Assembly (NCBI RefSeq): GCF_024223415.1
Contig: NZ_CP100500.1
Length of the DNA stretch: 64,000 bases
Direction: 5' to 3' (one strand)
From: Escherichia coli
Lineage (GTDB): Bacteria > Pseudomonadota > Gammaproteobacteria > Enterobacterales > Enterobacteriaceae
Part shown: positions 13,869 to 28,322 of the stretch, piece after piece
Numbering within the stretch: position 1 is the stretch's first letter
How the letters are laid out: each line of letters starts with the position of its first letter
Program-made: the position numbers and the translations under genes
Notes under the pieces: model-generated
Told to the model about the DNA's origin: nothing
Databases searched by the model: none
What the model saw: only the letters and a program-made list of their open reading frames with translations

Positions 13869-13903
13869 CGCCCCTCTGGGGAGAGGGGTAGGGTGAGGGG
13901 GCC
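13869..13903. repeat. GC-rich interspersed repeat (cccctctggggagaggggtagggtgaggggg)
   Basis: Near-identical to the motif inside the 22835..22925 palindromic element; intergenic yjdP/phnP. Confidence 0.6.
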
Positions 13904-13923: not shown

Positions 13924-14682
13924 TCACGCCACCCCAATCTCCATCCCATCAAACCCCGCCTCAAACCCCGACGGCAGTGTGTTTTCCATCAGCCATGCAT
14001 CAAACTGATGGCTGATGTGCGTCAGAATCACGCGCGGCGAGCGGATAACCTGATTCAGCGCAAGCACGGTATTTAAATCACAGTGATTACGCGGTGCATC
14101 CTCGCACGGCGGGTGGCTGCAATCAATCACCATTACCTGCGGCTGATTATTGCGTAATAATTTCAGCGTTTTTTCCGGCAAGCCAGCGGTGTCAGACAGC
14201 CACGCCACCCGGCTGTGCGCCGTTTCCAGCAGATAACCGAAGGTCAGTTTTGAGTGGTTGAGCGGCAGGGGCGTGACCTGTAACCCCTGCAAATCAAACA
14301 CCACAAACGGTTCCACCGTGTGGCTGAAATCAAGCAGGCCCGGATGTTTAAACAGATCGTCGCAGCCCTGTTCATCCGGCGGGCCGTAAACCGGGATCGG
14401 ATCGCCCACACCCCAGCGCAGCGGAAACAGCCCCTGGACGTGATCCATATGGTAGTGCGTCAGCAAAAACTGCTGGAACGATCCTGGCGACCAGCGATCG
14501 GTGAGATCGTGCAGCCCGGCGTCGATCAGGGTGATCGCCTCGTTAAACTTCACTACGCCGCTGCACGGTTGGCGGCGATACTGCGGTGAGCGCCGCGCTC
14601 TGGCGCAGGCCGCACACTCGCAGCCCCATGCCGGAACGCCCTGTGCGCCGCCGGTGCCGGTGAGCGTGAGGGTCAGGCTCAT
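13924..14682 (-). CDS. phnP: Phosphoribosyl 1,2-cyclic phosphate phosphodiesterase PhnP
   Basis: 252-aa ORF; metallo-beta-lactamase HxHxDH motif ([10 protein letters not shown]); last gene of phn operon. Confidence 0.9.
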
Positions 14683-14683
14683 G

Positions 14684-15118
14684 TTACAGCGCCTTCGTGA
14701 AGCGGAAGTGGCTCTGCTCGTAGCCTTCGCGCAGATAGAAACGGTGTGCGTCGTGGCGCTTCACGTTGGTCGAAAGCTCGGTCATTTCGGCCCCGGCCTG
14801 GCGGGCTTCTTCTTCTGCCCACGCCAGTAACTTGCTACCGACGTTCAGGCCGCGCGCCTGCGGCATCACCACCAGTTCCTGAATTTCACCGATCCAGTTG
14901 ACATGATGCAGATGAAACTGCAAATGCAGGCCGATCATGCCGACAACTTCGCCATCCAGCAGCGCCAAATGGTAGCGCATGTTCGGGTCGCGTAGGTTAG
15001 CGTTAAAGCCCACGCGAAACGCGTGATGGTCAAACTCCGCCTGTTTTAGCTCACAAATCAGCGCGTAAACCGCGTCGGTGTCGTACTGCGTGGCCGGGCG
15101 AAGCTCACAAGCAGGCAT
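14684..15118 (-). CDS. phnO: Aminoalkylphosphonate N-acetyltransferase PhnO
   Basis: 144-aa GNAT-fold ORF; operon position. Confidence 0.9.
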
Positions 15119-15662
15119 GGTGTTTCTCCTTCTGATGGATCAGCGTCAGCAGCGTGTCGACCGACTGGCGCAGGCTGCCGTCATTATTGAGCGTATGGCA
15201 ATCCTGTGGAGTATAGCGGGCGGCGCGCACCAGCCGGGCGTTAATTTCACTGGCGTTTTCGCGGCCACGGTTTTCCAGGCGCTGGCGCAGGATCTCCGGC
15301 GAAACCTGCAAGCAAATGGGCAGCAGCGCCGATTGATAGCGCGCCCGCGCCTGCGGCAAATGGGCGCGTGAGCCGTTGACCAGCACGTCGAATCCGGCGT
15401 GCAGCCAGAGGTCGATCTCGACGCCGACGCCATAATACAGACCGTTGGCGTGCCAGCTTAAGGCCAGCAGATTTTGCCCCGCGCGGGTAAAAAACTCCTG
15501 CTCACTCAGGGCGATATGGTTTTCGCTTCCAGCGCTGGCATCGCGCGTGATGTAGCGATGCGCCACCAGTAACTGAGTTTGTTCCCGCAGGCGGAGTTCC
15601 GCCAGCAGGCTATCTTTCCCGGAGCCGGACGGCCCCATTAACCAAATCAGTTTTCCCGTCAT
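15105..15662 (-). CDS. phnN: Ribose 1,5-bisphosphate phosphokinase PhnN
   Basis: 185-aa ORF with P-loop GPSGSGKDS. Confidence 0.9.
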
Positions 15663-16798
15663 CAGAACACCCTTTTACCCTGACGCCAGACGTGGTCGAT
15701 ATGAATGTGGTTGCCCTTGCGATGCGCCAGCACCAGGTCGGCGCGTTTGCCCTCGCCAATCACCCCGCGATCCTGGAGATTGAGCGCCTGCGCCGGATTT
15801 TTAGTCACCAGCTTCACCGCCTGCGGCAGCGTAAAGCGGTTGCTCTGGTCATCGGCCACGCGGAACGCCGCATCCAGCAGGCTGGCGGGGTAGTAGTCGG
15901 AAGAGAGGATATCCAGCAGGCCAAGCTGCGCCAGTTCACTGGCCGCCACGTTGCCGGAGTGCGAACCGCCACGCACGATATTTGGCGCGCCCATCAGCAC
16001 GTTCATATCATGCTTGCGCGAGGCTTCTGCCGCTTCGAACGTGGTGGGAAATTCGGCGATCACGCTGCCAAGCTGATGGGATTCGGCAACGTGGGCGTGG
16101 GTGGCGTCATCGTGGCTGGCAAGCGCAATTTTTCGCGCGCGGCACAGGGCGGCGATGGATTCGCGATTCGGCTGCGACCAGCGTGCGGCGAGCGCCAGTT
16201 GCTCTTCTTCGTACTGCTGCATCTGCGCATCAGTGAGCGAGTATTTGCCCTGATAATATTCACGGTACTTCTCGCGGTTGGCGAACTGGCGCTGGCCCGG
16301 CGAGTGGTCCATCAGCGACACCAGCGTCACCGGCTCGCGCTGCACCAGTTTTTCAAACAGCGGCAGCGTGGTGTGATGCGGCAGCTCGCAGCGCAGGTGC
16401 AGACGGTGCTCGGCGCGGTTGACGCCGCGCTTCTGCGTCTCTTCGATGGCGTTGATCATCTTCTCCAGATTCTCCAGCCGATCGCCGCCGTCGCGTACGT
16501 CGCCAATCGCCACGGCGTCCAGTACGGTGGTGATGCCGCTCGCCACCATCAGCGCGTCGTGGCTGCTCATCGCCGAGTGGGCAGGCCAGTCAACTTTCGG
16601 GCGCGGGGTGAAGAATTTATCCAGATTATCGGTATGCAGCTCAATCAGCCCCGGCAGCAGCCAGCCGCCTTCGCCGTCCATCGCCTCCGGCAGGCGGCTC
16701 TGGCTTTCGGCAAAGGCGCGGATTTCGCCGTCCTGCACCTCCAGTGAACCGTGTACCACTTCGTTTTCCAGCACCAATTTGACGTTATTGATAATCAT
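15662..16798 (-). CDS. phnM: RPnTP diphosphatase PhnM (amidohydrolase fold)
   Basis: 378-aa ORF matching recalled PhnM; operon position. Confidence 0.9.
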
Positions 16799-17475
16799 AA
16801 AGAGGCTCCCATTGGGTGCAGGCGGTCGGCAACGTCATTACGTACGGCTTCGTCATGGAAGATGCCGACAATGGCTGCGCCACGAGCTTTGGCTTCGCGG
16901 ATCAGTTCCACCACCGCGGCGCTGTTTTTGGCGTCCAGCGAGGCGGTAGGTTCGTCGAGCAGCAGAATGGGGTAGTCGACGATAAAGCCGCGGGCGATGT
17001 TGACGCGCTGCTGTTCGCCGCCGGAGAAGGTTGATGGCGCCAGGTGCCACAGGCGTTCCGGCACGTTCAGGCGGGTGAGCAGACGCGCGGCTTTAGCGGC
17101 GCAGGCTTCACGCGGTACGCCGGTATCGAGCAGCGGCTGCATCACCACTTCCAGTGCTGAAATACGCGGGATGACGCGCAGAAACTGGCTCACCCAGCCG
17201 ACGGTGGTTTTGCGGATCTCCACCACTTTGCGCGCTGGCGCGGTGACCAGATCGACCCATTCGTCACCGTGTTTGATCTGGATTTGCCCTTCGTCGGGCA
17301 GATAGTTGGCGTACAGCGAGCGTAGCAGGGTTGATTTTCCGCTGCCGGAATGGCCGTGGAGCACCACGCATTCGCCCGCGTTGACGGTGAGCGAGGCGCG
17401 GTTGAGGACGGGCAGGCGCACGCCGTTTTGCTGGTGCAGGATGAAGGTTTTACTGACGTTTTGTACGTTAATCAT
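16795..17475 (-). CDS. phnL: C-P lyase system ATPase PhnL
   Basis: ORF 16795..17589; recalled PhnL starts [11 protein letters not shown] (226 aa); Walker [10 protein letters not shown]. Confidence 0.88.
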
Positions 17476-17496
17476 TTTTCGCCTCGTGGTTCGGGT

Positions 17497-17580
<84 letters not shown>

Positions 17581-17585
17581 CCGGC

Positions 17586-18344
17586 TCAATTCTGCAAAAC
17601 CGATGACACCAGCAGTTGTGTATACGGATGGTGCGGGTCGTCGAGCACGCGGTCGGTTAACCCACTCTCCACCACTTGCCCCTGCTTCATCACCAGCAAA
17701 CGGTCCGCCAGCAGGCGGGCGACGCCTAAATCGTGGGTGACAATCACTACCGCGAGGTTCAGCTCCACCACCAGGCCGCGCAGCAGGTCGAGCAGGCGCG
17801 CCTGCACCGACACATCCAGCCCGCCGGTCGGTTCATCCATAAACACCAGCTTCGGATGCGTCACCAGGTTGCGGGCAATCTGCAAACGCTGCTGCATACC
17901 GCCGGAAAAGGTGGTCGGCAGGTCGTCGATCCGGTTGGCGGGAATTTCCACCTCTTCCAGCCACTTCTGCGCGGTGGCGCGAATATCGCCGTAATGACGC
18001 GCCCCGGTCGCCATCAGCCGCTCGCCGATATTGCCGCCTGCCGAGACCTGGCGGCGCAGGCCGTCGAGCGGATGCTGATGCACCACGCCCCATTCGGTGC
18101 GCAGCAGGCGACGGCGGTCGGCCTCGCTCATTGCATACAGCGAACGGTTCTCGTAGTGAATTTCCCCCTGCTGCGGCGTCAGGCGCGCGGAGATTGATTT
18201 CAGCAGCGTGGTCTTCCCGGAGCCGGATTCCCCGACGATGCCCAGCACTTCTCCCGACCATAAATCAAAAGAGACATCGCTAAAGCCTTTGCCCGGCGCG
18301 TAAAGGTGGGTCAGGTTATTGACCGAAAGTAACGGTTGATTCAT
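17586..18344 (-). CDS. phnK: C-P lyase system ATPase PhnK
   Basis: ORF 17586..18374; recalled start [11 protein letters not shown]; Walker [10 protein letters not shown]. Confidence 0.9.
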
Positions 18345-19186
18345 TGGCTTTTTGCCTCGCTCTGTTGGCGGCAATAATCGGTATCGGAGCAGACAAACAT
18401 GCGGTTTCCGGCGTCATCCAGCACCACTTCGTCGAGATAGCTGTGGGTCGATCCGCAGATGGCGCATGGCTCATCCCACTGCTGAACGGTGAACGGGTGA
18501 TCGTCGAAATCGAGGTTTTCCACGCGGGTAAACGGCGGCACCGCATAAATACGCTTCTCGCGCCCCGCGCCGAACAGCTGCAGGGCGGGCATCATGTCCA
18601 TTTTCGGGTTATCGAATTTCGGGATCGGCGACGGGTCCATCACGTAGCGCCCATTTACCTTCACCGGATAGGCGTAGGTGGTGGCGATATGACCGAAGCG
18701 GGCGATATCTTCATACAGTTTCACCTGCATCACGCCGTACTCCTCCAGCGCGTGCATGGTGCGGGTTTCCGTTTCGCGCGGCTCGATAAAGCGCAGCGGC
18801 TCGGGGATTGGCACCTGGAAGATAATGATCTGATCTTCGGTCAGCGGCGTTTCGGGGATGCGGTGACGCGTCTGGATAACCGTCGCATTGTCCGTACGTT
18901 CCGTGGTGTTTACCCCGGTCACGCGCTTGAAGAAGTTGCGAATCGACACGGCGTTGGTGGTGTCATCCGCGCCCTGGTCAATCACCTTCAGCACGTCGCT
19001 TTCGCCAATCACGCTGGCGGTAAGCTGTATGCCGCCGGTTCCCCAGCCGTACGGCATCGGCATCTCGCGCCCGCCAAACGGCACCTGATAGCCGGGGATC
19101 GCCACCGCTTTTAAGATGGCGCGGCGGATCATGCGTTTGGTCTGCTCGTCGAGGTAGGCAAAGTTGTAGCCGCTCAGATTAGCCAT
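18341..19186 (-). CDS. phnJ: Alpha-D-ribose 1-methylphosphonate 5-phosphate C-P lyase PhnJ
   Basis: ORF 18341..19375; recalled PhnJ (281 aa) begins MANLSGYNFAYLDEQTKRMIRRA; four conserved Cys near C-terminus. Confidence 0.9.
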   Translation of the reverse strand: MANLSGYNFAYLDEQTKRMIRRAILKAVAIPGYQVPFGGREMPMPYGWGTGGIQLTASVIGESDVLKVIDQGADDTTNAVSIRNFFKRVTGVNTTERTDNATVIQTRHRIPETPLTEDQIIIFQVPIPEPLRFIEPRETETRTMHALEEYGVMQVKLYEDIARFGHIATTYAYPVKVNGRYVMDPSPIPKFDNPKMDMMPALQLFGAGREKRIYAVPPFTRVENLDFDDHPFTVQQWDEPCAICGSTHSYLDEVVLDDAGNRMFVCSDTDYCRQQSEAKSQ

Positions 19187-20243
19187 GGTTCTGCTCCTGT
19201 TGCAGACGTTTGAGTAGCTCCAGTTCGGCCTGGAAATCGACGTAGTGCGGGAGTTTGAGGTGTGAGACAAAGCCTGCGGCTTCGACGTTGTCGGCATGTG
19301 CCAGCACGAACTCTTCATCCTGCGCCGGGCCTGTCGCGTGCTCGCCGTACTCCGGAGCCTGCAACGCACGGTCAACCAGCGCCATTGCCATTGCTTTGCG
19401 CTCGCTCATACCGAACACCAGCCCGTAGCCGCGCGTGAAGTGCGGCGGTTCATCTGGCGGGTCGATAAAACCGTTGACCATTTCACACTCAGTCATCAGC
19501 AATTCGCCGACGTTCACCGCAAATCCCAGCTCTTCCGGCACAATCGACACGTCGATGTAACCACTGCGGATTTCACCCGCGAACGGGTGATTGCGCCCGT
19601 AACCGCGTTGGGTGGAGTAGGCGAGCGCCAGCAAATAGCCTTCGTCGCCGCGCATCAACTGCTGCAAACGGGAAGAACGTGAGCAGGGGTAAACCGGCGG
19701 CGTGCGGGTGATATCATCCGGCTGTGCGCCGCTATCCTCTTCAAACTTCGCCAGCCCCTGACGCGCCAGCAGGCTGAAAACGTGCGGCGACGGCTGCTGT
19801 TCGCTGTCGGCGGTGGTCAGCGTCGGCGCTTCGCCGTTTGCCAGCAGAGTGAAATCGAGCAGGCGATGGGTGTAGTCGTAGGTTGGGCCAAGCAACTGGC
19901 CGCCGGGAATATCTTTATAAACCGCTGAAATACGCCGTTCGAGGCGCATCTCCGTGGTGTCGAGCGGCTCGCTTACCGCGAGCTTCGCCAGCGTGGTGCG
20001 GTAGGCGCGCAGCAGGAAAATTGCTTCGACGTTATCGCCGCTGGCCTGTTTCAGCGCCAGCGCCGCCAGTTCGCGGTCGGCAATGCCGCCTTCGGTCATC
20101 ACGCGATCCACCGCAAGATTAAGCTGCTGTTCAATCTGGGCGACGCTCAGTTCAGGCAAATCGGTATCGCCCCGGCGTCGGCTCTCTTGCAGGGCGTGGG
20201 CGGCGTCGATCGCCTTCTCGCCCCCTTTCACGGCAACGTACAT
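19179..20243 (-). CDS. phnI: C-P lyase core complex subunit PhnI
   Basis: ORF 19179..20363; recalled PhnI (354 aa) begins [12 protein letters not shown]; start/stop ATGA overlap with phnH. Confidence 0.9.
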   Translation of the reverse strand: MYVAVKGGEKAIDAAHALQESRRRGDTDLPELSVAQIEQQLNLAVDRVMTEGGIADRELAALALKQASGDNVEAIFLLRAYRTTLAKLAVSEPLDTTEMRLERRISAVYKDIPGGQLLGPTYDYTHRLLDFTLLANGEAPTLTTADSEQQPSPHVFSLLARQGLAKFEEDSGAQPDDITRTPPVYPCSRSSRLQQLMRGDEGYLLALAYSTQRGYGRNHPFAGEIRSGYIDVSIVPEELGFAVNVGELLMTECEMVNGFIDPPDEPPHFTRGYGLVFGMSERKAMAMALVDRALQAPEYGEHATGPAQDEEFVLAHADNVEAAGFVSHLKLPHYVDFQAELELLKRLQQEQNHG

Positions 20244-20827
20244 CAGCACACCTCCACATGAGTGGTTCGCGGAACAGCCAGCAGGCGCTCGCCGCAGGTC
20301 AGGATCAGGTCGATGCCGAGCGGGAACGGGTGCGGGCGCTCGGTGAGTTCGTGCAGAATGCACTCCGGCAGCTGCGGGGCGATCATTCGTTCTTCGGCAA
20401 TGCCCGCACCGGTGAGGCGCAGCATGCGCCCGCCGCTCAGGCTGGCGACTTGTAAAATCAGCGTCGCGCCCGCTTCCGGCGCAACGGCGGTGCCGGTGGA
20501 AAGGGCGTTGAGCTGTTCGCTGGAAATCGCCTCATCCGCTACCGCGAAGGTCGCCTGTTCCGGCTGGCTGACCAGCGGCGCGTTGGTATGAAAACGCAGG
20601 CTCTGGCTGACGATATCGTTGCTCAATGGCGCGGCAAGCCACACCGGCGTGTCGTTATCAGCCAGCGTCAGCAGCACGCTGGTGGTGGCGATATTCAGCG
20701 GCTGCCAGCCGCGCTTGAGCTGATGCAGGGCGACAATCACGCCCGGCTCGCTCATGGCCTTTAACAGGCGACGAAAACTGTGCTGGGCATCCTGCACGGG
20801 AAGCATAAAAGCGGTTTCCAGGGTCAT
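20243..20827 (-). CDS. phnH: C-P lyase core complex subunit PhnH
   Basis: 194-aa ORF matching recalled PhnH. Confidence 0.9.
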
Positions 20828-21276
20828 GCGTTGTCTCCGCGAACCATCGTAAAGAAGTCGACCCGGCTGGCGTTCACTTCGGCCTGGCGTGCGGCAATGC
20901 GTGCCATACGGTCAGCGTCCAGCGGGGCAATAAGCGTTTCTGATAAGTTTTGAAAGTGGCGAGATTGCTGCATCAGCGCGTCAATCAGCGCGCAGCGTTC
21001 GGCGTGCTGTTTGTCGCGCCCCAGCACCCAGCTGTAGCCGAGGGTGCCGTCAGTCAGGCGTACGGCGGCGCGGGTGAGCGTGGCGTCGCCGGCAAAAAAG
21101 CGTTCGCCGGTGCCGCCCATCCGCGCCTGAATCTGCACCAGACCAGTTTCGGCAGTGCGGATCACTTCATAGTCGGCGGTGATGTTCAGCGCGTTCAGGC
21201 GGGCTGCCAGTTCAGCCGGTTGGCTGTGCGCCAGTACGGACATCCAGTGCTGGCGGGTCGCGGTATCTGCGTGCAT
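20824..21276 (-). CDS. phnG: C-P lyase core complex subunit PhnG
   Basis: 150-aa ORF matching recalled PhnG. Confidence 0.9.
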
Positions 21277-22002
21277 TCAGTGCTCCATAGTGAATTCAAT
21301 CATGTCGGCGCGCGTCAGGCTGACGGAGTACTCCGCCGGGCTGCTTTCACCGTCACGGTGGTTAAGGGTGCGCACGCACAGCAGCGGCGACATATTCGGA
21401 ATTTCAAGACGCTGGCACTCTTTGGCCTGGGCGCGGCGGGCGCTGATCCGCGTCTGGCTGCGGCGCAGTGCAATCCCCGTTTGCTCGCGCAGAAAATCGT
21501 GCAGCGAGCCGCTGTCGAAGCGTTGCAGCGTCGGCCAGAGGGTGAGGTCCGCGAAGTAGTGGTCGATTAAACAGAGCGCGATGCCGTTGACCCGGCGCAG
21601 GGTGCGCAGGTGGATAACGTTCTCGCCCTCCTTGATCCCCAGCGCGTCTGCCACGTGACCAGACGCCGGGCGCAGCACCGACAGCAGTTTTTCGCTGGTG
21701 GGGTGGCTGCCCTGATCCAGCAGATTCTGGCTAAAACGCGCCTGGGCGTTAAGCGGGTAATCGAACGGGCGCATCAGCACCAGCACGCCGACGCCCTGAC
21801 GGCGCTGTACCCAGCCTTTTTCCACCAGTTGGTCGATAGCGCGGCGCAGGGTGTGGCGATTCACCTCAAAACGCGCCGCCAGTTGCTGCTCGGCGGGAAG
21901 ATAGTCGCCGCAGCGGTAGTGTTGACGAAGCTCCTGCTCAAGTTTTGCGGCTATCTCCTGATAGCGTGTTGGGTAGCTGGTCGGATGTGTAGACAAGTGC
22001 AT
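21277..22002 (-). CDS. phnF: GntR-family repressor PhnF
   Basis: ORF 21277..22011; winged-helix N-terminus and UTRA-type C-terminus; recalled start MHLSTHPTSYPTRYQEIA. Confidence 0.9.
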   Translation of the reverse strand: MHLSTHPTSYPTRYQEIAAKLEQELRQHYRCGDYLPAEQQLAARFEVNRHTLRRAIDQLVEKGWVQRRQGVGVLVLMRPFDYPLNAQARFSQNLLDQGSHPTSEKLLSVLRPASGHVADALGIKEGENVIHLRTLRRVNGIALCLIDHYFADLTLWPTLQRFDSGSLHDFLREQTGIALRRSQTRISARRAQAKECQRLEIPNMSPLLCVRTLNHRDGESSPAEYSVSLTRADMIEFTMEH

Positions 22003-22022
22003 AGCTATCAATGCCTCGCTAA

Positions 22023-22802
22023 TCAGATAAAGTGCTTACGCAACCGTTGAGAGAGGAAATCCAGCAGGCTGACCGTGACGATGATAAGCACCATCAGGGC
22101 GCAGGTTTGCTGGAACTGGAAACCGCGAATCGCTTCCCACAGCGTGACGCCGATCCCGCCCGCGCCGACCATGCCGACGACGGTCGCCGAGCGGACGTTG
22201 GATTCGAAGCGATAGAGGGAGTAGGAGATAAGCAGCGGCATCACCTGCGGCAGCACGCCGTAGAGGATCTCTTCGAGCTTGTTGGCGCCGGTGGCGCGAA
22301 TGCCTTCCACCGGGCCGGGTTCAATCGCTTCCACCGCTTCGGAAAGCAGCTTGGAGAGCACGCCGGTGGTGTGGATAAACAGCGCCAGCACGCCAGCGAA
22401 TGGGCCGAGGCCGACGGCGACCACGAACAGCATGGCGAAGACCATTTCGTTAATGGCGCGGCAGGCGTCCATCAGGCGGCGAACGGGCTGGTAAACCCAC
22501 CACGGCACCAGGTTTTCGGCGCTCATCAGGCCGAAGGGGATGGAGAGAACCACCGCCAGCGCGGTGCCCCAGACGGCGATTTGCAGCGTGACGAGCATTT
22601 CGGTGAGGTAATCCTGCCACTGGCTGAAATCAGGCGGGAAGAAGTCGGCGGCGAAAGTCGCCATGTTGCCGCCGTCTTTAATCAGCGTGAGCGGGGCCAT
22701 TTCCGCGCCCTGCCACGAGACGACCAGCACGGCGAGTACAACGGCCCAGCTCAGAAGCGAGAACCAGCTGCGCTTGGGTGGGGCGATGGTGATGGTTTGC
22801 AT
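22023..22802 (-). CDS. phnE: Phosphonate ABC transporter permease PhnE (intact reading frame)
   Basis: ORF 22023..22826 uninterrupted; polytopic membrane protein; K-12 phnE is recalled as frameshifted. Confidence 0.88.
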
Positions 22803-22834
22803 GTTTGGCTCCGTGATAGTGTGCACGATCGGTT

Positions 22835-22925
22835 CCCTCGCCCCTTCGGGGAGAGGGTTAGGGTGAGGGGCAACGTGCGCGCCGATCCCCTCACCCCGGC
22901 CCTCTCCCCAAAGGGGAGAGGGAGA
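22835..22925. repeat. GC-rich palindromic interspersed element (~90 bp)
   Basis: Two arms cccttcggggagagggttagggtgagggg / cccctcaccccggccctctccccaaagggg are inverted copies; motif shared with 13869..13903. Confidence 0.65.
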
Positions 22926-22931
22926 AAACCA

Positions 22932-23948
22932 TTACTGCACCGCTTTACTCACCGAACTCATCGCGCTTAACGCGTTGTTCAGGCGGTCCAGGTCATCCAG
23001 CTGCGCCTGAATGGCGGTGGTTTTCGCCAGCTTGTCCTGCTCATTCAGCCCTTTATTGCCTTTCACGCCCTGCATCTCTTTAAACAGCGCGAGCTGGCGA
23101 ATCGGCACCAGTTGCAGGTCGCTGGAGGCGCGGAACGGCGCCCAGCCCAGGCGTTCCAGCACCGCTTTCTCTTCCGGCGTTTTTCCGTAGTTCATAAAGA
23201 AGTCGTAGATCTTGTCTTTGGTGGTTTCGGACAGATTCTTGCGCCAGACGATCGGATCGCCTGGGATCAGCGGCGATTTCCAGATCACTTTCAGTTCTTT
23301 CAACTTCTCCGGCGCGGAGGTTTTCAGCTTGTCGAGGTTCTCGGTGTTGTTAGTGGCAACATCCACCTGCTTGTTGGCGACGGCCAGCGCGTTGGTTTCA
23401 TGCCCGGCGTTGACGGTGCGCTTGAAGTCGCTGGCGGAGATATTGTTTTTGGCGAAGACGTAGTAGCCGGGGACGAGGAAGCCAGAGGTGGAGTTAGGAT
23501 CGCCATTGCCGAAGGTGAGATCTTTCCGCTTCGCCAGCAGATCGCTCAGGTTGTTGATCGGGCTGTCTTTGTTGACGATTAACACGCTCCAGTAACCCGG
23601 CGATCCGTCCGCCGCGACGGTCTGAGCGAAGACCTGGCCGTTGGCGCGATCCACCGCTTCCATCGCCGACAGGTTGCCGTACCAGGCGATATCCACTTTG
23701 TTGAAGCGCATTCCCTGGATAATGCCCGCGTAGTCCGGGGCAAAGAAGGCGTTGACCTTCACGCCAAGCTTCTTCTCCATATCCTGTAAAAACGGCGTCC
23801 ATTGTGGTTTCAGGTTTTGCTGTGATTCCGTTGAAATAATGCCGAAATTCAGCGCCTTTTCCTGTTCTTCGGCGTGTGCCGGGCTTAACAGGGTGCTGAG
23901 GCTGAACATGCTGGTGAAGGCCAGCGAGGCAATTATCTTAGCGTTCAT
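22932..23948 (-). CDS. phnD: Phosphonate ABC transporter periplasmic binding protein PhnD
   Basis: 338-aa ORF with signal peptide; matches recalled PhnD. Confidence 0.92.
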   Translation of the reverse strand: MNAKIIASLAFTSMFSLSTLLSPAHAEEQEKALNFGIISTESQQNLKPQWTPFLQDMEKKLGVKVNAFFAPDYAGIIQGMRFNKVDIAWYGNLSAMEAVDRANGQVFAQTVAADGSPGYWSVLIVNKDSPINNLSDLLAKRKDLTFGNGDPNSTSGFLVPGYYVFAKNNISASDFKRTVNAGHETNALAVANKQVDVATNNTENLDKLKTSAPEKLKELKVIWKSPLIPGDPIVWRKNLSETTKDKIYDFFMNYGKTPEEKAVLERLGWAPFRASSDLQLVPIRQLALFKEMQGVKGNKGLNEQDKLAKTTAIQAQLDDLDRLNNALSAMSSVSKAVQ

Positions 23949-23972
23949 TCGTTTTCCTCAATGATGGGGATG

Positions 23973-24761
23973 TCAGGCAGCTTTCGCGTTCTCTTCGACG
24001 CGGTTGATGCTGCGGTAGAGATGGTCAAAACGTTCGTTATCAAACTGTTGGCTGCTGCCGTCGTAGAAGACGTGCCCCTGACGCAGGGCGACGATGCGCT
24101 CGCAGTAGCGCAGGGCGTAATCCACCTGATGTAGCGTGACGACCACGGTGATGCCGTCGTTCTGGTTGATGTCGCGCAGGATGTCCATCACGATGCGCGC
24201 CGATTCCGGGTCCAGCGAGGCGATCGGTTCGTCGGCGAGAATCACCTTCGCCTGCTGCATCAGCGCGCGGGCAATCGCTACACGCTGCTGCTGTCCGCCG
24301 GAGAGGGTGGAAATGCGCTGATGGGCAAAATGCACCATGCCAACACGGGTCAGCGCCTGTAACGCGCGCTGTTTCTGCTCGCGGGTGAACCAGCTAAAAC
24401 AGGTGCGCCAGAACGGCGTGCTGCCGAGCGCGCCAATCAGCACGTTCTCCAGTACGCTCAGGCGATTCACCAGGTTGAATTGTTGGAAGATGTAGCCGGT
24501 GTTGGCGCGGCTTTTGCGGATATCGCGGGCCAGACGGCCATTTTGCTGGACGGTACGGCCCAGCAGTTCGACGCGGCATTCTGGCTTTTTATCGCCGACA
24601 ATCAGGCCGCTTAAGTGACGTAAAAGGGTGGATTTGCCGGAACCCGACGGCCCAAGCAGAGCCACCATTTCACCGTGATGAATGTTCAGATCAACCGCAT
24701 GCAGCGCCTGATGCTGATTGAAGGTTTTGGCGAGCTTCTCGACACGGATAATCGTTTGCAT
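23973..24761 (-). CDS. phnC: Phosphonate ABC transporter ATPase PhnC
   Basis: 262-aa ORF; Walker [10 protein letters not shown], signature LSGGQQQR. Confidence 0.92.
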
Positions 24762-24827
24762 GATGCAGCCTCCCTAAAAAAGTGGCTCCATCGTGGCGGA
24801 TTATTGTGACGATTTGGTTAATTAAAA

Positions 24828-24867
24828 GTGACTAACAGATGAAGAGTTAACGGGAATTCGATGACAG
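24828..24867 (-). promoter_or_regulatory. Pho box (PhoB binding site) of the phnC promoter
   Basis: On the phnC coding strand: CTGTCAT-cgaa-TTCCCGT-taac-TCTTCAT-ctgt-TAGTCAC, i.e. 7-bp repeats with 4-bp spacers about 60-100 bp upstream of phnC. Confidence 0.7.
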
Positions 24868-24893
24868 TGCGGGAGGGCGGGCCTCCCGGCGGA

Positions 24894-25400: not shown

Positions 25401-25519
<119 letters not shown>

Positions 25520-26049
25520 TGAACTGCACCCCAAATGTTGGACATAATCTGACATCTGAAGGTGCAGTTTATGAAACATTCATTTGAAGTAAAACTTGCC
25601 GCTGTAAATCATTACCTGGCCGGTCATGCAGGCATCATTTCTACGGCAAAACTCTTTCAACTTTCTCACACCAGCCTCTCACACTGGATTAATCTTTTTC
25701 TTCTTCACGGTCCTCAGGCACTGGATTGCAGACACAAGCGTAGCTATTCTCCTGAAGATAAACTTTGCGTGGTTCTTTATGCTCTCGGGCATTCTGAGTC
25801 TCTACCCCGGGTAGCTGCCCGGTTTAACATTCCCAGCCACAACATGGTTAAAAACTGGATAAAAGGCTACCGCAAATCTGGTAATGAGGCCTTTATCAGG
25901 CGCAGGAAGGAGAAAAGCATGACCCGTTCTGATGATACCCATGAAAACGAGGCAAACATGACGCCGGAAGAGATGAAGAATGAGCTGCGTTATCTTCGCG
26001 CAGAAAATGCATATCTGAAAGCCATGCAGGAGCATCTCCTGGAAAAAAA

Positions 26050-26951
<902 letters not shown>

Positions 26952-27008: not shown

Positions 27009-28322
27009 TTATTGATCCGCAGTTTTATCAAATTTGCCCAGCACTTCACGCTCATAAGCCAGCGCTTTCTTACGGTCAAATTTGTGTTCCCACTTGGCAA
27101 TCACCAGCACCGCCAGTGCATTACCCACCACGTTCAGCGCAGTACGCGCCATATCGAGGATACGGTCAACACCGGCAATAAACGCCAGACCTTCCAGCGG
27201 AATACCTACGCTACCCAGCGTTGCCAGCAACACCACAAACGACACGCCCGGCACGCCAGCAATCCCTTTCGAGGTCACCATCAGCGTCAGCACCAGAATG
27301 ATTTCCTGCCAGATGGACAGGTCAATGCCATACAGCTGAGCGATGAAAATAGCGGCAATACTTTGGTACAGCGTCGAACCATCAAGGTTAAAAGAGTAAC
27401 CGGTCGGCACCACGAAACTGGTGATCGACGCCGGTGCTCCGTAGGCTTCCATCTTCTCAATAATTCGCGGCAGTACGCTTTCAGAGCTGGCAGTGGAGTA
27501 CGCCAGAATCAGCTCATCTTTCAGAATACGAATCAGGATCCAGACGCTTAACCCGCACAGGCGCGCCACAATTCCCAGCACTACCAGCGCGAAGAACAGA
27601 ATGGCGAAATGCACCAGCAGCACCAGTTTCGCCAGTGGCCACAGAGAAGAGAAACCAAAGTTAGCCACCGTCACCGCAATCAGCGCAAACACACCCACCG
27701 GCGCATAACGCATCACCATGTGAGTCACTTTAAACATGGTTTCAGAGATGGAGCGGAACACGGTCACCAGCGGTTCACGATGCGTCGCGGGCAGGGAGGA
27801 AAGCCCCAAACCAAACAGCACCGAGAAGAAGATGATCGGCAGCATTTCGCCTTTCGCCATCGACGCCACAATGTTCGTCGGCACCAGCGACAAAATCGTG
27901 CCCATAATGCCGTGGGAACTGCTTTGTACCGCTTCCGTAGTGCTCTGATATTTCGAGATATCGACGGTCGCCAACTGCGACATATCCACCCCGGCACCGG
28001 GCTGGAAGACGTTCGCCAGAGTGATCCCCAAAATGATGGCAACGGTGGTGATCACCTCGAAGTAGATAATGGTTTTCGCGCCAATACGCCCGAGCTGTTT
28101 GGCATCACCAACACCCGCGATACCCACCACCAGCGTGGAGATCACAATCGGCACAACAATCATTTTGATCAGATGGATGAAGATATCACCCGCCGGAGAG
28201 AGCAAATTGACGACCAGCCAGTCGCGGCTGTCGCTATGGTAGTGCAGGTAGCTTCCCAGGAGAATGCCCAGCACCATAGCAAACAGAATCTGCCAGGCCA
28301 GGCTGAATTTTATATTTTTCAT
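27009..28322 (-). CDS. gltP: Glutamate/aspartate:proton symporter GltP
   Basis: 437-aa ORF matching recalled GltP (MKNIKFSLAWQILFAMVLGILLG…). Confidence 0.93.
   Translation of the reverse strand: MKNIKFSLAWQILFAMVLGILLGSYLHYHSDSRDWLVVNLLSPAGDIFIHLIKMIVVPIVISTLVVGIAGVGDAKQLGRIGAKTIIYFEVITTVAIILGITLANVFQPGAGVDMSQLATVDISKYQSTTEAVQSSSHGIMGTILSLVPTNIVASMAKGEMLPIIFFSVLFGLGLSSLPATHREPLVTVFRSISETMFKVTHMVMRYAPVGVFALIAVTVANFGFSSLWPLAKLVLLVHFAILFFALVVLGIVARLCGLSVWILIRILKDELILAYSTASSESVLPRIIEKMEAYGAPASITSFVVPTGYSFNLDGSTLYQSIAAIFIAQLYGIDLSIWQEIILVLTLMVTSKGIAGVPGVSFVVLLATLGSVGIPLEGLAFIAGVDRILDMARTALNVVGNALAVLVIAKWEHKFDRKKALAYEREVLGKFDKTADQ

Follow-up and report, generated by a model that had tools for sequence, protein, structure and literature searches.

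The window analysed here, a 64,000-nucleotide stretch of Escherichia coli DNA, carries a complete phnCDEFGHIJKLMNOP operon on the minus strand (positions 13924–24761), with all 14 genes at full length. The features considered below are, in the direction of transcription:

24762–24893, minus strand: upstream regulatory region of phnC (from the sequence and its alignment to K-12)
23973–24761, minus strand: phnC, ATP-binding subunit, 262 amino acids (NF007438, 593.6 bits, residues 1–262 of 262)
22932–23948, minus strand: phnD, periplasmic phosphonate-binding protein, 338 amino acids (TIGR03431, full-length match of 375.4 bits, cut-off 261.1)
22834–22923, no strand assigned: GC-rich palindrome with 37-nt arms in the phnD-phnE intergenic region (inverted repeat, RNA fold, alignment with K-12 and S51)
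22824–22826, minus strand: in-frame GTG of a 267-codon reading, probably not the start (from the list of open reading frames; inside the strain-specific intergenic element)
22809–22812, minus strand: GGAG ribosome-binding site, 6 nt 5' of the ATG at 22802 (read from the sequence; conserved in four alleles)
22023–22802, minus strand: phnE coding sequence, 259 amino acids plus stop (open frame; TIGR01097; PF00528; 100% identical to S51 phnE)
22382–22397, minus strand: 8-bp repeat tract within phnE, two units, GCTGGCGT GCTGGCGC on the coding strand, gene nt 406–421, codons 136–141 (alignment; regular-expression and coordinate check)
21277–22002, minus strand: phnF, GntR-family phosphonate regulator, 241 amino acids (NF007486, 517.7 bits, residues 1–241 of 241)
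13924–21276, minus strand: phnG to phnP, C-P lyase pathway genes, open and full length (NCBIfam equivalogs and Pfam)

Within the C-P lyase set, NCBIfam equivalog matches were obtained for PhnG, H, K, L, M, N, O and P. PhnI and PhnJ matched no NCBIfam family at E <= 1e-30, and were identified instead by Pfam matches of 515 and 500 bits, respectively.

Reading frame and surroundings of phnE

The phnE gene is an uninterrupted open frame of 780 nt, consisting of 259 codons and a stop codon when read from the ATG at 22802. The frame can be extended upstream to a GTG at 22826, which would give a product of 267 amino acids; the initial annotation had described an uninterrupted frame of 260–267 codons, in agreement with these two readings. 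The predicted protein matched the NCBIfam equivalog TIGR01097 with 312.6 bits (cut-off 216.7), with residues 16–258 aligned to positions 8–251 of the 252-position profile, and it matched Pfam PF00528 (BPD_transp_1) with 91.8 bits (cut-off 26.4) over residues 88–258. These two matches indicate that the frame is not a chance open reading frame, and the score, the permease domain and the phn-operon neighbourhood together place the protein in the TIGR01097 family, supporting the earlier identification of the gene as that of the phosphonate permease. The 90%-identity protein cluster that holds the window PhnE also includes several 241-amino-acid members named PhnF, apparently an artefact of how entries are clustered or labelled in the protein collection rather than a property of the window.

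We rejected the GTG of the 267-codon reading as the start; this codon lies inside a strain-specific insertion without counterpart in K-12 or B, and RefSeq annotation starts at the ATG. In strain S51, which has the identical sequence, RefSeq annotates a 780-nt phnE (WP_001302225.1) from the ATG. Alignment of the window with K-12, S51 and the pig isolate P13-6 showed that the GGAG and the ATG are conserved in all four despite unrelated upstream spacers. Because of this conservation, and because the GTG sits in an element absent from K-12 and B, we conclude that the ATG at 22802 is the real start and that the product has 259 amino acids.

The spacer between phnD and phnE (22803–22931) is 129 bp long and contains one copy of the palindromic element, with arms at 22834–22870 and 22887–22923 and a predicted RNA fold of -87 kcal/mol (z = -8.5). 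At this position, K-12 and B instead carry a REP-type spacer of 105 bp that is unrelated to the palindromic element. The annotations of S51 and KV7 put the spacer at 256 bp; in S51 it reads as two tandem copies of ~127 bp, and the other top matches span ~130 bp more than the window at phnD-phnE. The single copy in the window could be due to recombinational deletion or to assembly collapse. The element matched no Rfam family at the gathering threshold; it may belong to one of the named E. coli intergenic repeat families, possibly 'BoxC'. The motif GGGGAGAGGGGTAGGGTGAGGGG recurs immediately 3' of phnP, at 13878–13900, where it departs from the core of the spacer element by one mismatch; zero occurrences are expected by chance. 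This second copy 3' of phnP suggests that the element is a dispersed intergenic repeat that both flanks and interrupts the phn operon.

Beyond the promoter-proximal end of the operon lies a copy of the IS3-family element IS1397, with its transposase at ~25571–26919 on the plus strand and the end of the IS at ~26970. It adjoins a match to the REP325-derived naRNA4 (CssrE) at 25401–25477 on the minus strand, downstream of yjdN. IS1397 prefers palindromic-unit/REP targets, and an insertion beside naRNA4 fits this preference. Past IS1397 the window runs into gltP (27009–28322, minus strand) and then nrfG/F/E/D. In KV7 and S51, gltP/nrf lie ~33 kb from yjdN, as in the K-12 gene order, and gltP is flanked by another IS1397 copy of opposite orientation. 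The arrangement in the window implies either a ~33–35 kb inversion between two inverted IS1397 copies, flipping the phn operon, or an assembly mis-join through the IS. The window holds one junction of the putative inversion, and the other junction lies outside it.

The 8-bp repeat tract of phnE in the window, K-12 and B

We aligned the window phnE with the genes of an MG1655 derivative (MGY), S51 and P13-6. The alignment located the repeat at 22382–22397 and showed that the K-12 tract reads TTC-GCTGGCGT-GCTGGCGT-GCTGGCGC-TG, with three units of the consensus GCTGGCGY, whereas the window tract reads TTC-GCTGGCGT-GCTGGCGC-TG, with two units and in frame. The additional 8-bp unit of K-12 is the sole length difference between the two genes within phnE. 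The third unit of K-12 throws the gene out of frame from codon 140 onward, so that the product ends after 189 residues; this frameshift was not seen in the window. When the number of units was varied in silico, tracts of one, three and four units led to premature stops at codons 158, 190 and 166, respectively. By contrast, the window gene has two GCTGGCGY units from nt 406 onward and, like the B allele, terminates at codon 260. K-12 phnE is flagged as "frameshifted" by PGAP and is the pseudogene phnE1/b4583 in NC_000913.3, and the statement in the initial annotation that the K-12 gene is inactivated by a short duplication is thus correct. That annotation had also described K-12 phnE as phase-variable, and reversion of the K-12 defect by slippage, with loss of 8 bp, is indeed described in the literature (PMC6469041; PMC4759930).

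The window allele closely resembles alleles for which function has been established by experiment. The phn operon of E. coli B, phn(EcoB), supports growth on phosphonates (PMC3463581), as do the operons of K-12 Phn+ revertants, phn(EcoK+) (PMC6469041). Like the window gene, these alleles encode 259 amino acids, have the tract GCTGGCGTGCTGGCGC at nt 406–421 and lie in the same operon context. They differ from it by A70 in place of L70, by 17–19 synonymous or silent nucleotide differences, and by a different palindromic element in the phnD-phnE spacer. Removal of one unit from K-12 phnE in silico gave a protein that differs from that of the window at one residue, A70 versus L70 in the window, and PhnE of the B-lineage strain NEBExpress shows the same single difference, with 258 of 259 residues identical. 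The cryptic K-12 phnE1 (b4583) shares with the window gene the orthologous locus, the promoter and the neighbouring genes, and outside the tract 17 of 764 nt differ (~98% identity); unlike the window gene, it has the one additional GCTGGCGT unit. Based on the 258 of 259 residues shared with the functional B and repaired K-12 proteins, we infer that the PhnCDE system of the window would transport phosphonate, phosphite or phosphate.

An intact frame could still encode a transporter that is inactive or poorly expressed, either through the A70L difference or because the palindrome between phnD and phnE acts as a terminator or barrier. The window protein is one residue away from the B and repaired K-12 proteins of proven function, and the hairpin predicted for the intergenic RNA is strong. 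However, the exact window protein, L70 included, is found on at least 1,000 public contigs under the name MULTISPECIES PhnE, which would be unexpected for a dead allele, and the change from A to L is conservative and falls within a hydrophobic segment. As for the palindrome, K-12 and B also have a palindromic spacer at this position, of REP type, suggesting that a hairpin there is normal for the operon; moreover, no T run follows the hairpin, and the ribosome-binding site is preserved. We therefore consider an inactive or poorly expressed PhnE very unlikely, and favour a functional protein.

Tract alleles and haplotypes across E. coli

We surveyed 5,426 complete RefSeq E. coli genomes with a 104-base K-12 stretch containing three units and the matching 96-base two-unit stretch, calling three units at >=95% identity to the three-unit query. 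Among ~4,945 matching records, ~3,935 had two units, ~1,009 had three, and one, YZ22PE244, had four, as confirmed by reading its sequence. In ~450 further genomes phnE was too divergent for the short queries, and those sampled (e.g. UTI89) had a gene of two-unit length. Hence, the two-unit, in-frame phnE is the majority state, found in roughly 80% of complete E. coli genomes, and the unusualness that the initial annotation had implied for an intact phnE is not borne out. The literature already states that phnE is functional in most E. coli, and the intact gene in the window is the ordinary, already documented wild-type condition. The three-unit OFF allele extends beyond laboratory K-12, to NCTC86 and to isolates from pigs, dogs, cattle, humans and water, including seawater; a literature search for phnE frameshifts in natural isolates found no relevant report.

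A separate set of genomes showed other changes at the locus. No megablast match to phnE was obtained in 32 of the 5,426 complete genomes, and a few further genomes matched phnE only partially, such as W409, in which a hypothetical protein abuts phnF. These absent or partial matches suggest that the phnE locus is occasionally deleted or disrupted otherwise than through the 8-bp tract.

We also compared the rest of phnE, leaving out the tract. Among the alleles fetched, those with three or four units (K-12, P13-6, NCTC86 and YZ22PE244) are 0–1 nt apart and represent one haplotype. By contrast, sampled two-unit alleles differ from the three-unit haplotype, and among themselves, at 12–33 positions. 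A search with the three-unit haplotype minus one unit returned five records at >=99.9% identity, with the next-best match at 99.2%. These five two-unit records comprise two pig ETEC, two hospital isolates and one MG1655 derivative, so that revertants make up ~0.5% of the records of the three-unit haplotype (5 versus ~1,009). The genome survey revealed no variation in unit number on the window's own haplotype and no OFF variants on non-K-12 haplotypes. Lineages of the window type appear never to have been OFF.

These comparisons bear on whether the window phnE descends from a three-unit OFF allele that was switched ON only recently. Slippage revertants that have lost 8 bp are well documented in K-12 (PMC6469041; PMC4759930), and five two-unit records, the MG1655 derivative among them, do lie on the exact three-unit haplotype. 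However, the window phnE is 16–17 nt from the three-unit haplotype outside the tract and identical there to S51; all sampled three- and four-unit alleles lie on one haplotype that is not that of the window; and the closest relatives of the window share the annotated intact protein. Recent reversion is thus so improbable that we give it next to no weight. Given the haplotype distance, we conclude instead that the window allele is no recent revertant and that its lineage is in the ancestral two-unit state.

The phnE tract shares several properties with slipped-strand contingency loci. It is a short tandem repeat within a coding region, its 8-bp unit is not divisible by three, and variants with two, three and four units occur in the species, with ~1,009 three-unit, one four-unit and five two-unit records on the K-12-type haplotype. 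Unlike such loci, the window tract has only two units, the OFF state is found on one haplotype, and mixing of ON and OFF on that haplotype is rare. Because of these last two properties, the tract in nature seems closer to an inherited polymorphism than to a rapid switch. The two-unit tract of the window is not structurally locked, and is best regarded as an ON state from which slippage may still occur. We lean slightly towards the view that the phnE tract of natural E. coli is not a fast ON/OFF switch, and that the OFF allele is a single, stably inherited haplotype present in about one in five complete genomes. Iqbal et al. reportedly described in 2004 the inactivation of phnE as peculiar to K-12, and are also said to have found that the lost unit returns at appreciable frequency in K-12 revertants of Phn+ phenotype. 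A single, stably inherited OFF haplotype, if real, would qualify the idea that phnE inactivation is peculiar to K-12, and the persistence of a broken phosphonate importer in the three-unit lineage would then call for an explanation.

Regulation and expected use of phosphonates

The initial annotation had predicted from the intact phnE that the PhnCDE phosphonate/phosphite uptake system is constitutively functional. As part of the PHO regulon, the phn operon is induced by phosphate shortage, and phnF has been described as a putative negative regulator (PMC6469041). Upstream of phnC in the window we found Pho-box-like CTGTCAT / CTGTTAG repeats at ~24817–24867, by our own comparison with the published consensus. 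Across 161 alignment columns covering the phnC start and upstream sequence, the window and K-12 differ by one distal mismatch, and the proximal 153 bases are identical. We observed neither loss nor alteration of the Pho-control elements or of PhnF. Since the phnC upstream region is identical to the Pho-regulon promoter of K-12 over these proximal bases and phnF is intact, expression is expected to depend on phosphate starvation still.

Constitutive function of PhnCDE is therefore highly unlikely. An intact phnE does remove the only genetic block known in K-12; however, an open reading frame is uninformative about constitutive transcription, and the promoter region, the PHO-regulon membership of the operon and the intact phnF all argue against it, leaving the prediction of constitutive function unsupported. 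Taken without the word 'constitutively', the functional prediction of the initial annotation is reasonable. The phnE allele should be genetically ON, yet conditionally rather than constitutively expressed, if the sequence identity to K-12 is a guide to Pho regulation in the window strain. With respect to substrates, PMC6469041 reports phosphate uptake by PhnCDE, and summarises growth experiments that suggested uptake of phosphite and phosphate esters (Metcalf and Wanner, 1991).

Overall, the window almost certainly contains a standard functional phnE allele whose two-unit tract is in frame, with phosphonates used only under phosphate starvation and with residual slippage possible in principle. 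The source is a wild-type member of the S51/KV7/NCTC10444 clade of E. coli, and its phnE encodes the membrane permease of the PhnCDE phosphonate ABC importer. The gene is in frame because the internal GCTGGCGY tract has two units, the third unit of K-12 and its relatives being what breaks the frame. As phnC, phnD and all of the C-P lyase genes are intact as well, the strain should be able to import and use phosphonates, with import probably limited to phosphate starvation by a PhoB-dependent phnC promoter. Gain or loss of one of the two remaining units by replication slippage could turn the gene off. A strain with an intact phnE should thus resemble most wild E. coli and strain B in drawing phosphorus from phosphonates under phosphate starvation, with K-12 and its lineage the exception at phnE. 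Annotation transfer or metabolic models based on K-12 will mistakenly class strains such as that of the window as Phn-negative.
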